31,319 nucleotides of DNA, taken from the IMG/VR virus record IMGVR_UViG_3300003432_000012, positions 1 through 31,319 of that record; one strand, given 5' to 3'. Position 1 is the stretch's first letter. Every line of letters starts with the position of its first letter. The stretch comes from a virus (lineage: Duplodnaviria > Caudoviricetes). Shown piece after piece: positions 2,966-29,168 of the stretch. The notes under the pieces are model-generated. The model was given only the letters and a program-made list of their open reading frames with translations, was not told the origin of the DNA and did not search any database. The translations under genes were made by a program, and so were the position numbers.

Positions 2966-3004
2966 GTATTTCAAGTTAAACAGAAACACAAACCGGAGGA
3001 TGAA

Positions 3005-3175
3005 ATGACAACACAAGAAATACAAAGACAACAACACAACCAAATCATGAATCGTTTAGGTGATTTGGTTCGCAGAGCAGATGATCTGTTAGGAGAGACA
3101 CCTGATTGGGTTATCGAAGCAATGAGAAAGAATGAAAGAAACAACAACAAATATTCAAGGTGGGACGATGAGTGA
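3005..3175 (+). CDS. Hypothetical 56-aa protein, first gene after the promoter
   Basis: Hand translation MTTQEIQRQQHNQIMNRLGDLVRRADDLL...; strong GGAGG RBS. Confidence 0.7.
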   Translation: MTTQEIQRQQHNQIMNRLGDLVRRADDLLGETPDWVIEAMRKNERNNNKYSRWDDE

Positions 3176-4162: not shown

Positions 4163-4272
4163 AACTACAAATATTAGCAGGATTGGCATTACTTTACATT
4201 ATTGCAGTATTGACAACAGAAAAAGAAGAAACATATATTTATAGACAAATGGCAAACCAGGAGGAAAAATGA
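4159..4272 (+). CDS. Small membrane protein, 37 aa
   Basis: Hand translation MKLQILAGLALLYIIAVLTTEKEE...; ATGA overlaps at both ends. Confidence 0.5.
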   Translation: MKLQILAGLALLYIIAVLTTEKEETYIYRQMANQEEK

Positions 4273-4448
4273 CAAAGCGAGAATTTATAAGGATATATTG
4301 TAAAGAATCGGAAATAACATGGAAAGAGCTAAAAAAAGAAGTCGCATGCCTGCCATGCAAATGCAGTGAAGAAGGGTGTAATGGATGGGCTATGGTGCAC
4401 AATAACAAAGAATCAATAGATATGCATAATTATTTATACAATAGGTGA
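4269..4448 (+). CDS. Small Cys-cluster phage protein, 59 aa
   Basis: Hand translation ...ACLPCKCSEEGCNGWAMV...; CAGGAGG RBS. Confidence 0.65.
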   Translation: MTKREFIRIYCKESEITWKELKKEVACLPCKCSEEGCNGWAMVHNNKESIDMHNYLYNR

Positions 4449-22340: not shown

Positions 22341-22884
22341 AGCCTTTTTTGATGCATACAGGCTTAAATTTGGCTCTTTAAAACAATCTCAGGTTGATGG
22401 TATTAATCAATTGCTTTCGTTCGGTGCTGGGTTTGATAAGCGTTATTTTGCTTATATGATGGCAACTGTAAAACATGAGTGTGCAGACACATGGAAGCCA
22501 ATAACAGAATACGGAAGTAAGGACTATTTTAATAAGTATGATGCAGATACAAGATTGGGCCAAAGACTAGGAAACATTGTTGATGGTGATGGTTATAGGT
22601 ACAGGGGGAGGGGATACGTCCAGATTACAGGCCGCGCAAACTATGAAAGATTAGGCAATATAATAGAGGTTGATTTAATAAACAATCCAGACCTTGCGCT
22701 AGACCCTGTTAATGCGTTTAGCATCATGAAAATAGGCATGGAAAAAGGGTTATTCACTGGAAAAAGGCTATCTGATTACATCAACCAATCATGCAACTAT
22801 TTACAAGCTAGAAGGATTATTAACGGCATGGATAGAGCTGAATTAATTGCTGGCTATGCTAAATTCTTTGAAGGGATATTATGA
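22327..22884 (+). CDS. Endolysin, glycoside hydrolase family 19
   Basis: AYMMATVKHE, PITEYG, LGN..DGDGYRYRGRGYVQITGRANY, ARRIING; alternative start 22300. Confidence 0.92.
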   Translation: MINTKAFFDAYRLKFGSLKQSQVDGINQLLSFGAGFDKRYFAYMMATVKHECADTWKPITEYGSKDYFNKYDADTRLGQRLGNIVDGDGYRYRGRGYVQITGRANYERLGNIIEVDLINNPDLALDPVNAFSIMKIGMEKGLFTGKRLSDYINQSCNYLQARRIINGMDRAELIAGYAKFFEGIL

Positions 22885-23147
22885 GAACAATACTATTCAT
22901 TAACCTATTCATAATACTATTCATGCTTCTATCAATGTATGGATGTACAGAAATACAGGTTAAATATTTACCTATTGATCTTACTCAAAAGCTACCAGAA
23001 AAATCAATATTGCCAGTTGTTAAAAAAGAAGAGCTTAGATGTTTAACTGATGATGTTTACAAAAGACTGGAATATAGACAATGGCTACTAAAAAAAGATT
23101 CGTTAACATGCAGGGCGTTAATAGAAACAACAAAGAAAGCAGAATAA
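22881..23147 (+). CDS. Lipoprotein, putative outer-membrane spanin (Rz1-like)
   Basis: Signal peptide with lipobox-like MYGC; Pro-containing linker; two further Cys. Confidence 0.6.
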   Translation: MRTILFINLFIILFMLLSMYGCTEIQVKYLPIDLTQKLPEKSILPVVKKEELRCLTDDVYKRLEYRQWLLKKDSLTCRALIETTKKAE

Positions 23148-23190
23148 AAAAAGCCCTAGCGACCGCGATTCCGCAATCCTAACTAGGGCT
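23146..23190 (-). terminator. Intrinsic terminator (minus strand)
   Basis: AGCCCTAG/CTAGGGCT 8-bp stem around a structured 23-nt loop; A7 at 23146-23152 reads as a U tract on the minus strand. Confidence 0.7.
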
Positions 23191-23221
23191 AAACAGGAGG
23201 TTGAGAGGATGAATCTCAACC
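23146..23221 (-). ncRNA. Candidate small RNA carrying anti-Shine-Dalgarno seeds
   Basis: Own promoter; 5' hairpin GGUUGAGA-UUCAUCC-UCUCAACC, then UCCUGUUU, then terminator hairpin and U7; no ORF. Confidence 0.6.
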
Positions 23222-23223
23222 CA

Positions 23224-23251
23224 ATAATACCATAAAGTAAATAAAATGCAA
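23224..23251 (-). promoter_or_regulatory. Sigma70-type promoter for the candidate sRNA
   Basis: Minus strand TTGCAT-16 nt-TATTAT with extended TG. Confidence 0.55.
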
Positions 23252-23270
23252 AAGAAAAAGAAAGGCGGAA

Positions 23271-23501
23271 ATGGCAAAAAGTGTTAATTGCTTAAATACT
23301 TCTGGATTCGCTGGTGTATCATTTGACAAACGGCGTGGGGCATGGATGGCTTACGTTTACAGAAACAAAAAAAATACCTTTATCGGAAGGGATTACGCAA
23401 CATCCGACGAAGCCAATCAAGCAAGAGAGAAATATCTAAATGATGATAAGATTATTATTCCTACTGTTCGCAGTATCTTCAGTTCAAGCTGGAACCGTTA
23501 A
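23271..23501 (+). CDS. Stand-alone AP2-domain DNA-binding protein
   Basis: NTSGFAGVSFDKRRGAWMAYV......IG..Y.T..EA..AR. Confidence 0.8.
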   Translation: MAKSVNCLNTSGFAGVSFDKRRGAWMAYVYRNKKNTFIGRDYATSDEANQAREKYLNDDKIIIPTVRSIFSSSWNR

Positions 23502-26242: not shown

Positions 26243-26626
26243 ATGCAAGTGGAAAACAGGGAGGTTAGACCAGAACTAGACAACAGGCTAGTTGAAGTAT
26301 TCAAGAGTTTGGGATCAATAGAATCCAGGCTTGATGAAATGGAAAAGAAAACTAACATTAATGCTCAAAATCATATCCAATTAGAAAAAGAGCTGTTCAC
26401 GAACTTCAAAGAACTGAAAGAGACAGTTATTAAGATCAATGAACAGCTCATAGTAGCCGCTGCTTTAGAAAAAGAACGGCAAGAAACACGGGCTAGCATT
26501 GCGCTAGAAAGGCGGGAGTCTGACAAGGCAAATAAAAGCATGTTGCCTAAAATGCTTGATGCTGCGGTTAAATTCTGTACTCTAATTGGGTTCTTATGGG
26601 CCTTATTCACTATCCTGCAAAAATGA
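26243..26626 (+). CDS. Coiled-coil protein with C-terminal TM (holin/antiholin-associated type)
   Basis: Heptad-rich body; C-terminal FCTLIGFLWALFTIL; last gene of the late strand. Confidence 0.6.
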   Translation: MQVENREVRPELDNRLVEVFKSLGSIESRLDEMEKKTNINAQNHIQLEKELFTNFKELKETVIKINEQLIVAAALEKERQETRASIALERRESDKANKSMLPKMLDAAVKFCTLIGFLWALFTILQK

Positions 26627-28276: not shown

Positions 28277-28525
28277 TTATCTATAATCTTTTTCATTCGG
28301 CACAACCGTTAAAAAGTCATAAGTGCTATTTCCTTCTAATGTCTTAACCGGATTCAACAAGTCAAGTTCATCCAGGTGTACTGCATTATCCCAAAACCCT
28401 GTATTGTGGTCGATATAGCGGTTAACGTATTCATCCACTATGATAGTAAAATAAAACTCCTTATCATTATTGTTCCATACTTTGCAAAACTTAGGGTATG
28501 GTGATTGGCATTGTGTAAATTTCAT
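28277..28525 (-). CDS. Hypothetical protein, first gene of the leftward early operon
   Basis: Strong AGGAGG RBS; promoter immediately upstream. Confidence 0.7.
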   Translation of the reverse strand: MKFTQCQSPYPKFCKVWNNNDKEFYFTIIVDEYVNRYIDHNTGFWDNAVHLDELDLLNPVKTLEGNSTYDFLTVVPNEKDYR

Positions 28526-28550
28526 TTCATCCTCCTGTTAAGTTGAGTAC

Positions 28551-28579
28551 AGTCTATCAAAATAGTTTCGATGTGTCAA
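28551..28579 (-). promoter_or_regulatory. Leftward early promoter
   Basis: TTGACA-17 nt-TAGACT with extended TG. Confidence 0.8.
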
Positions 28580-28613
28580 ACAAAATAATTTCACATAACG
28601 AAACAAATATTTC

Positions 28614-28642
28614 TTGACACGAAACAAAATACAAACTATGCT
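28614..28642 (+). promoter_or_regulatory. Rightward early promoter
   Basis: TTGACA-17 nt-TATGCT; GAGAGGA RBS downstream. Confidence 0.8.
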
Positions 28643-28668
28643 GTATCCAACTTACGAGAGGACACAAA

Positions 28669-28944
28669 ATGATTAGAATAGAAAGCACAGAATTAAGGCA
28701 AAAAAAAATGACAGATAAGTATTCAAACGGTATAAATTTGTATGCAGGTAAGTGGAAAATAGGAAGTGTATGGTGGAACGGTTCAAGCGTTCCAACTGAT
28801 GAGCAAGGCAATAAATTAAATTATGCTGTTTCTTGTGAATTGCCAGGAATAAAAAATAGACTTGGTGACTTTATAAAAGAAAGTGAAGGTGTGGAAAGAT
28901 TACAAAAAGCATTTGATATTTGGCTTAAAGGCATATCACAATGA
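28669..28944 (+). CDS. Hypothetical protein, first gene of the rightward early operon
   Basis: ORF track, RBS and promoter. Confidence 0.7.
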   Translation: MIRIESTELRQKKMTDKYSNGINLYAGKWKIGSVWWNGSSVPTDEQGNKLNYAVSCELPGIKNRLGDFIKESEGVERLQKAFDIWLKGISQ

Positions 28945-29168
28945 CAATAAACGAAATGATTAGAGAAATGAAAGCAAAAGGCTTTAGCTATAAAGTAATA
29001 GCAGATTTGATAGATGAAGAAATGCAAAAAAAATATATCCATATATCTGTTAAAGGATTAAGCCCTCAAAGACTTGGTGTTATTGCATCAATAACAAGCA
29101 GAGAATGTACAACAACTTGTGATATTAGAGATTCAATTAAAAAAACCTACAGGAGATTATGCAAATAA
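28941..29168 (+). CDS. Small basic protein, possible HTH regulator
   Basis: IREMKAKGFSYKVIADLI resembles an HTH start; ATGA overlap. Confidence 0.5.
   Translation: MTINEMIREMKAKGFSYKVIADLIDEEMQKKYIHISVKGLSPQRLGVIASITSRECTTTCDIRDSIKKTYRRLCK

Follow-up and report, generated by a model that had tools for sequence, protein, structure and literature searches.

The window analysed here is the entire 31,319-base record of an uncultured wetland phage, rated about 81% complete. PHROGs matches to terminase, portal, scaffold, coat, head closure and ejection proteins and to a chitinase-type endolysin identify it as a P22-like podophage; among cultured phages, Rhodoferax phage P26218 has the closest coat protein (57%), and the closest complete relative is the genome G002 (38,458 bases; terminase 84%, coat 67%). 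Contigs at least 99% identical to the window come from soil and wetland metagenome runs, and the contigs of runs X4, X9 and X10 that span the putative small RNA (sRNA) element described here are identical to it. A host search in GTDB with the terminase returned two short MAG contigs from unrelated groups, at 57-63% identity. The element lies within the rightward late operon, between the lysis and tail genes, and is flanked by the gene that follows the endolysin (22881-23147) and by a stand-alone AP2-domain gene on the plus strand (23271-23501; Pfam AP2 E 2.4e-5, below the gathering score), which is linked to the sRNA unit. A preliminary description of this DNA had labelled the gene before the gap as o-spanin-like, a label that finds no backing in PHROGs or Pfam, neither of which gives a match. 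A 13-codon lysine-rich ORF on the plus strand (23246-23287) overlaps the AP2 start, and the variant contig considered below has no difference listed over 23246-23270.

The gap between the flanking genes (23148-23270) holds no ORF of at least 50 aa, and the gene-less minus-strand unit proposed for this location (23146-23251) can be read there directly. Its promoter elements are present as claimed, with a -35 hexamer TTGCAT (23251-23246) downstream of a T-rich tract, a 16-base spacer, and an extended -10 element of the form TG-N-TATTAT (minus strand, 23224-23232) in which TATTAT occupies 23229-23224 and the TG occupies 23232-23231 (-15/-14). Extended -10 promoter sites number two in the window versus about 1.1 expected in shuffles, so that the promoter alone is little proof. 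The terminator, also claimed with a U7 tract, is a bulged hairpin with an inner G.U-rich stem (minus strand, 23146-23190; inner stem 23161-23178), and it ranks first among the 138 hairpin-plus-T-run sites in the window (-23.5 kcal/mol versus -12.8 for the next). The nearest end of a leftward gene is more than 3.4 kb away. The G.U pairs form on the minus strand only, and through them the 77-mer folds better on that strand (-35.2 versus -27.9; z -5.2; 0 of 200 shuffles). Rfam gives no match at the gathering score in the window and no fitting one among nine weak matches at E<=10. Taken together, the rank of the terminator, the strand-specific folding and the conservation of the promoter in one variant contig make a small-RNA gene on the minus strand well supported, and the unit, predicted from sequence, is likely to be a real phage sRNA gene.

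The RNA had been described as about 75 nt long. Given an optimal spacing of 7 bp between the -10 element and the start, as reported in PMC12825309, transcription would begin near 23217 rather than at 23221, and the predicted length becomes about 72 nt (minus strand, 23146-23217). An inverted repeat of 8 bp around a 7-nt loop (23199-23221) is only partly inside this predicted RNA. The seed had been placed in the loop of a hairpin formed by this repeat; the repeat is indeed present, but because a start at 23217 falls inside the 5' arm, the 72-nt form retains just 4-5 bp, the 5' hairpin is weak, and the supposed loop seed would be largely single-stranded and open. With a start one base after 23217, 0 bp of the 5' hairpin remain in the fold.

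A natural variant of the locus is available from run X13 (contig 18, 214 bases), a single contig of low depth (2.6) whose differences were interpreted by hand. It aligns to 23185-23391 at about 85% identity, with 23 substitutions and 8 gap letters (19 of the substitutions and all of the gaps are listed). The -35 hexamer and the TG are unchanged, and the 16-base spacer carries 5 substitutions, a 1-nt deletion and a 1-nt insertion, its length being kept because the deletion is balanced by the insertion. The lone change in the -10 element gives the full consensus TATAAT on the minus strand and a worse -10 on the plus strand. Two changes, at 23221-23222 and thus upstream of the predicted start, remove the outer hairpin pair(s) on the minus strand and introduce a stop into a mini-ORF on the opposite strand, where an outer pair is retained as G.U. 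The end of the RNA that carries the seeds lies in the zone of the unlisted differences, and has no gaps and at most 4 substitutions. In the AP2 gene the frame is kept and 5 of the 11 listed changes are synonymous; such a codon-wise pattern makes assembly error an unlikely source of the differences.

The plus strand of the same segment contains two features that the preliminary description did not include. A promoter-like site facing the AP2 gene (TTGAGA-16-AATAAT; 23201-23228) overlaps the minus-strand promoter, such that the two -10 elements overlap and the two starts, placed by promoter spacing, would be 18 bp apart. Judged by these predicted starts, the geometry fits that of a bidirectional sigma-70 promoter, and the plus-strand -10 decays in the variant. 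The second feature, an SD followed by an 8-codon mini-ORF (23209-23235), is reduced to 4 codons in the variant; a functional 8-codon peptide was considered as a product and rejected because of this stop at codon 5. On the plus strand, the 7-nt loop of the inverted repeat displays GGAUGAA.

Two seeds can be recognized in the predicted RNA by string matching. Seed A, UUCAUCCUCU (minus strand, 23204-23213), is the complement of the early-gene tag AGAGGATGAA, and seed B, AACCUCCUGUUU (minus strand, 23191-23202), which is also indicated by cofolding, joins an anti-SD core to the complement of AAACAG. All eight of the target strings cited in the preliminary description were recovered at their positions. 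On the plus strand, the tag lies in the RBS of ORF 58-210 (48-56; string match and predicted duplex), in that of the HNH-related ORF 212-439 (202-210; string match) and in that of ORF 3005-3175 (2996-3004), the first gene behind the promoter-like site at 2938-2965. Matches to seed B lie in the RBS of the NinB-like ORF 440-853 (428-434), where the strongest duplex is predicted, and in that of ORF 4269-4448 (4258-4264), the first gene behind the promoter-like site at 4210-4239. The 14-nt RBS of the first leftward gene (28525; minus strand, 28526-28539) is matched by both seeds, and a 7-nt match occurs in the RBS of the first rightward gene (plus strand, 28656-28662). Perfect complementarity of 7-9 nt therefore extends to seven early start regions; those of the first genes that follow the four promoter-like early sites (2938-2965, read by eye; 4210-4239; 28579-28551; and 28614-28642) are among them. 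The earlier statement that the RNA matches the first RBS behind each of three early promoters is thus borne out for the RBSs (7-9 nt each) and revised for the promoter-like sites, which are four.

Several other features of the early region were observed. The divergent early promoters stand back to back at 28551-28642 with no repressor gene between them, a layout shared by G002, and an HTH-like ORF is present at 28941-29168. The early promoter-like sites at 2938-2980, 28545-28579 (minus strand) and 28614-28655 have in common the sequence GTA-N-YCAA-N-TTA just downstream of the -10, which suggests either a duplicated promoter-leader cassette or the site of a common regulator.

The ATGA within the target strings is not the start codon; it sits in the spacer, in the arrangement GAGGATGA-W-ATG, and at 208-210 its TGA is the stop of the upstream gene. 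The window contains five copies of GAGGATGA, of which four are in early RBSs (none in late start regions) and one, the sole copy outside an RBS, is in the sRNA element. The same string is found in 0 of 178 GAGG-containing start regions mechanically called in the other phage loci that were fetched. By their flanking sequence the four tags are probably two duplicated pairs (58 and 212 share 19 nt; 3005 and 28525 share promoter and RBS sequence), and hence do not represent four independent events. A second, upstream match that contains ACAG accompanies three of the four tagged sites, being predicted at 58 and 3005, possible at 28525 and absent at 212. Each of the tagged starts (49-61, 203-215, 2996-3008, and 28522-28534 on the minus strand) also reads as ATG, one codon and TGA over the true start, like a two-codon minigene right behind the SD, an arrangement that we take to resemble the bar minigenes of lambda.

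The strength of the early match was evaluated on start regions divided into early and late by our own assignment from gene order; 48 regions were kept after removal of ORFs 1980, 4899, 17509 and 30362, and cofolding used 50. Matches of at least 7 nt to the 28-nt 5' part of the RNA occur in 8 of 26 early regions versus 0 of 22 late regions (p=0.004), one of the eight (2718) being matched outside its SD. Matches of 9 nt occur in four start regions (p=0.003 in 5000 shuffles when both GAGG cores are kept; p=0.07 when GAGGATG is kept). When strong perfect matches are counted, the 5' part ranks first among 62,584 windows of the genome, with seven start regions, all of them early, versus two for the next intergenic window among those listed and the 5-6 that coding windows get by chance; when 7-nt matches are simply counted, the 5' part is equalled or surpassed by other windows and by real start regions. 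In cofolding with a start at 23217, the ten best partners among the 50 regions are all early (early versus late p=0.0007), and none of 60 full shuffles matched the gap between early and late, compared with 1 of 60 shuffles that preserved the cores. Among shuffles that keep the anti-SD cores, 22 of 60 attain the mean energy of the four first genes and 9 of 60 that of the top seven. To the best start regions the 72-mer is predicted to bind with a net -14 to -17 kcal/mol and the 77-mer with -8 to -10 kcal/mol; a start at 23222 would close the hairpin and cut the predicted binding by half. The plain 16S anti-SD tail motif has no significant early preference (p=0.15). The claimed preference for early RBSs over background SD sites consequently holds under most nulls, including the early-late count and the ranking among genome windows, and is weaker when the anti-SD cores are fixed, its targets not being independent. 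Duplex prediction against shuffled controls, which had been proposed for phage and host start regions and here covers those of the phage, likewise upholds the early-late gap under core-preserving shuffling, but not the mean for the four first genes.

Searches for related elements covered viral contigs, phage and plasmid records, and the relatives of the phage. The exact hairpin has 0 matches among viral contigs. For the seed pattern, the 109 distinct contexts listed of about 300 (including that of the window) contain no other with a stem of more than 2 bp, and the best 40 of these 109 consist almost wholly of ordinary start regions or intron-like sites in other viral contigs that lack the hairpin. 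A pattern of promoter plus start returned 16 loci, none with the seed, and a pattern of seed plus -10 returned 6 loci, none with the terminator. A blastn search of 50,697 phage records yielded, among the 20 matches listed of 86, nothing beyond short ones at E>=0.1, with no Escherichia phage in the organism tally, and plasmid records gave no homologue of the element. The element is absent from five related virus records; scans with the endolysin, tail and ejection proteins were empty or led back to no more than the window's record and G002, and the o-spanin-like and AP2 proteins found only themselves among proteins of near length. G002 has neither the sRNA element nor a tag common to its start regions nor a mirror window that stands out, which, as one comparison, is consistent with the tag and the RNA going together. 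Comparative support for this element is thinner than it would be in a family rich in relatives. A G002 hairpin with an anti-SD-like loop (L082:13055-13160) was tried as an analogue and set aside, as it did not stand out (2 matches).

Some structured RNAs were noted in the course of these comparisons. The G002 segment L082:13055-13160 (minus strand) is a long terminator hairpin (z -5.4) with a CU-rich top complementary to two early RBSs of that phage. Between the first two early genes of G002, L082:17670-17860 (minus strand) forms a 165-nt multibranch RNA with a 16-bp closing stem (z -3.4), at least five GGA motifs and no Rfam match, and this structured leader includes a 15/16 match to the inner hairpin of the terminator. 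The exact pattern of the inner hairpin occurs at 45 loci, several of them in structured intergenic RNAs, which by a rough estimate is about the chance level, and the literature on this string yielded nothing relevant. The 16-nt G.U-rich hairpin itself (window 23161-23178, minus strand) lies within longer predicted stems at L082:17803-17818, L210:2001-2016 and L216:2001-2016, and is also present in L208, L218, L220, L224, L230 and L248, with no Rfam match. Its contexts appear structured (e.g., a terminator between a cro-like gene and the next gene in L210, and the first early leader in G002).

The best reading of the locus, unproven and in our judgment about evenly poised between right and wrong, is that of a trans-acting anti-RBS sRNA that damps the early translation of the phage itself during the lytic cycle. 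Host sigma-70 polymerase would transcribe the RNA of about 72 nt against the direction of the late operon, and the RNA would accumulate after infection. Its open CU-rich 5' part would then pair over the SD and spacer of the genes that head the early operons and lower initiation, and at some targets the second upstream match containing ACAG could provide a two-point pairing like that of the a'/b' loops of C4 RNA. The most plausible timing would be a delayed negative feedback in the lytic cycle, and at a later stage the fully complementary late transcript running through the locus might titrate or neutralise the sRNA. Maintenance of a carrier state, which had been offered as a second option, is weak; the window is about 81% complete, and the role is made less probable by G002, which has no integrase or CI match among 55 non-structural ORFs and where an Arc-like protein was the sole notice. 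A more far-reaching version, which we advance tentatively and regard as possible rather than probable, is that of a repressor-less lytic podophage that times its early phase by RNA alone, with a private tag on the first RBS of every early operon, one stand-alone sRNA lying antisense in the late operon to read that tag, and late transcription to cancel it.

The sRNA could instead be real and directed at the host, acting on the G/A-rich SD sites of host mRNAs or, as an anti-sRNA like AgvB or AsxR, on the GGA repeats of a CsrB/Rsm-type RNA, and the match to early RBSs would then come incidentally with any anti-SD or anti-GGA sequence. GGA motifs that we take to be of the CsrA-binding type are complementary to both seeds. 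Core-preserving shuffles retain much of the binding energy, and the short length of the RNA and its position convergent to the late operon resemble those of the anti-sRNAs of EHEC prophages (PMC4104026). We nevertheless judge a host-directed RNA somewhat unlikely, since among the loci checked GAGGATGA is private to the early genes of this phage, its only other copy in the window is the element, and an RNA aimed at the host should leave the first genes of the phage itself alone.

Other explanations dispense with an active antisense RNA. The locus might combine a strong terminator for leftward early read-through with a bidirectional promoter for the AP2 gene, leaving the short minus-strand RNA as a by-product and the likeness to an RBS as a relic or a live plus-strand start. 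The leftward operon that ends at 26603 overlaps a late gene end and has just a weak terminator-like site there; the overlapping -10 elements would give starts at the 18-bp spacing reported as the commonest among bidirectional promoters (PMC12825309); the plus strand carries a textbook arrangement of SD, 8 nt and ATG, of the kind found at the start regions that, with intron-like sites, make up nearly all of the best 40 of 109 pattern matches elsewhere; and the full 8-bp hairpin suits the plus strand better than a transcript from 23217. This account is unlikely in view of the variant, which improves the minus-strand -10 to consensus as it worsens the plus-strand -10 and cuts the mini-ORF to 4 codons, and it offers no reason why the 27-nt stretch from start to terminator should be the genome's best mirror of early RBSs. 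Alternatively, a protein may read GAGGATGA, whether CsrA/RsmA of the host or a phage-encoded repressor or nuclease akin to T4 RegA/RegB, and the plus-strand hairpin of the late mRNA would serve it as decoy or as binding site; or else the inverted repeat may be a DNA operator over both promoters. GGAUGAA is displayed in the plus-strand loop, where the variant keeps the outer pair as G.U; T4 RegB is reported to cleave GGAG in early mRNAs (PMC1702504); and the repeat spans the minus-strand start site and the plus-strand -35. Yet the 51 ORFs of the window give no RegA/RegB or CsrA match in PHROGs, the window has no second copy of the inverted repeat at up to 1 mismatch, and the minus-strand promoter and terminator are left unexplained, which together render a protein reader or an operator quite improbable.

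Among known systems, the C4 antisense RNA of P1/P7 is similar in size to the anti-RBS sRNA proposed here (about 77 nt), is phage-encoded and acts on the phage's own mRNA, one region occluding the RBS and a second pairing upstream (PMC5320573); the present RNA is predicted to act likewise on the phage's own mRNA by RBS occlusion. C4 is described as having three stem-loops, as cut from a precursor by RNase P, and as serving lysogenic immunity (PMC5320573), whereas the present unit is equipped with a promoter and a terminator of its own, is predicted to act on several operons, and belongs to a phage with no visible repressor. The C4 model of Rfam has 0 matches in the window at the gathering score, and the family is not among the nine weak matches at E<=10; in place of the stem-loops P1-P3, the predicted fold has one weak or moderate hairpin and the terminator (at most two hairpins). 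With regard to RNase P processing, the conserved promoter immediately upstream suggests a primary transcript. As predicted, the unit would thus work like C4 while failing the tests of its fold and model. With AgvB and AsxR of EHEC prophages, reported as Hfq-bound RNAs of 51-60 nt that target host sRNAs and share a conserved 3' region of about 42 nt (PMC4104026), the unit shares a gene convergent to the late operon, on the minus strand between lysis and tail genes, and a short 5' seed on a large terminator hairpin. It differs in its length of about 72 nt and in having phage mRNAs as its predicted targets, and the shared 3' region was not found, with no sequence match among the 20 listed of 86 blastn matches in the 50,697 phage records. 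Mycobacterial 6C is a CU-rich anti-SD bacterial sRNA whose pyrimidine-rich single-stranded regions pair with many mRNAs (PMC6486639), and the open pyrimidine-rich regions and many mRNA targets are similar here; 6C is host-encoded, acts on host targets, and is unrelated in sequence and fold. T4 RegB also inactivates early mRNAs through a motif common to their SD regions (PMC1702504), but it is a protein endonuclease and not an RNA, with no homologue found in the window.

The start-associated sequence (SAS) of Cluster K mycobacteriophages is a 13-mer extended RBS tag found in 11-19 copies on non-structural genes, with a reader, RNA or protein, that the sources state to be unknown (PMC3203893, PMC11373665). 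As with SAS, the tag here is confined to non-structural genes (GAGGATGA marks 4 early start regions and no late one), apart from a lone copy outside gene starts; one SAS copy is reported on the opposite strand and not tied to a gene start in four Cluster K genomes (PMC3203893), and this copy is itself a candidate antisense reader. The present system differs in its sequence, in its copy number (a 13-nt consensus present 4 times, with 3 further partial sites), and in offering a candidate RNA reader with a promoter and a terminator. If the timing by RNA alone were true, it would name the long-sought kind of reader for SAS-type tags, and the pair of sRNA and tag would give a testable model for start-associated sequences. 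A multi-operon anti-RBS phage RNA is not described in the portions available of a 2025 review of phage sRNAs (PMC12197685), and no such case was found in the literature on phage sRNAs at early RBSs or against CsrB/RsmZ, covered mostly as open-access main texts. In the reviewed sources, again as far as available, a phage sRNA with a phage target either lies cis-antisense to one gene (sar, OOP, aQ, sas) or is directed at one antirepressor message (C4, 24B_1) (e.g., PMC12197685). Compared with such pairing to a single phage message, one RNA that reads an RBS tag common to several early operons would constitute a different way to time a phage programme.
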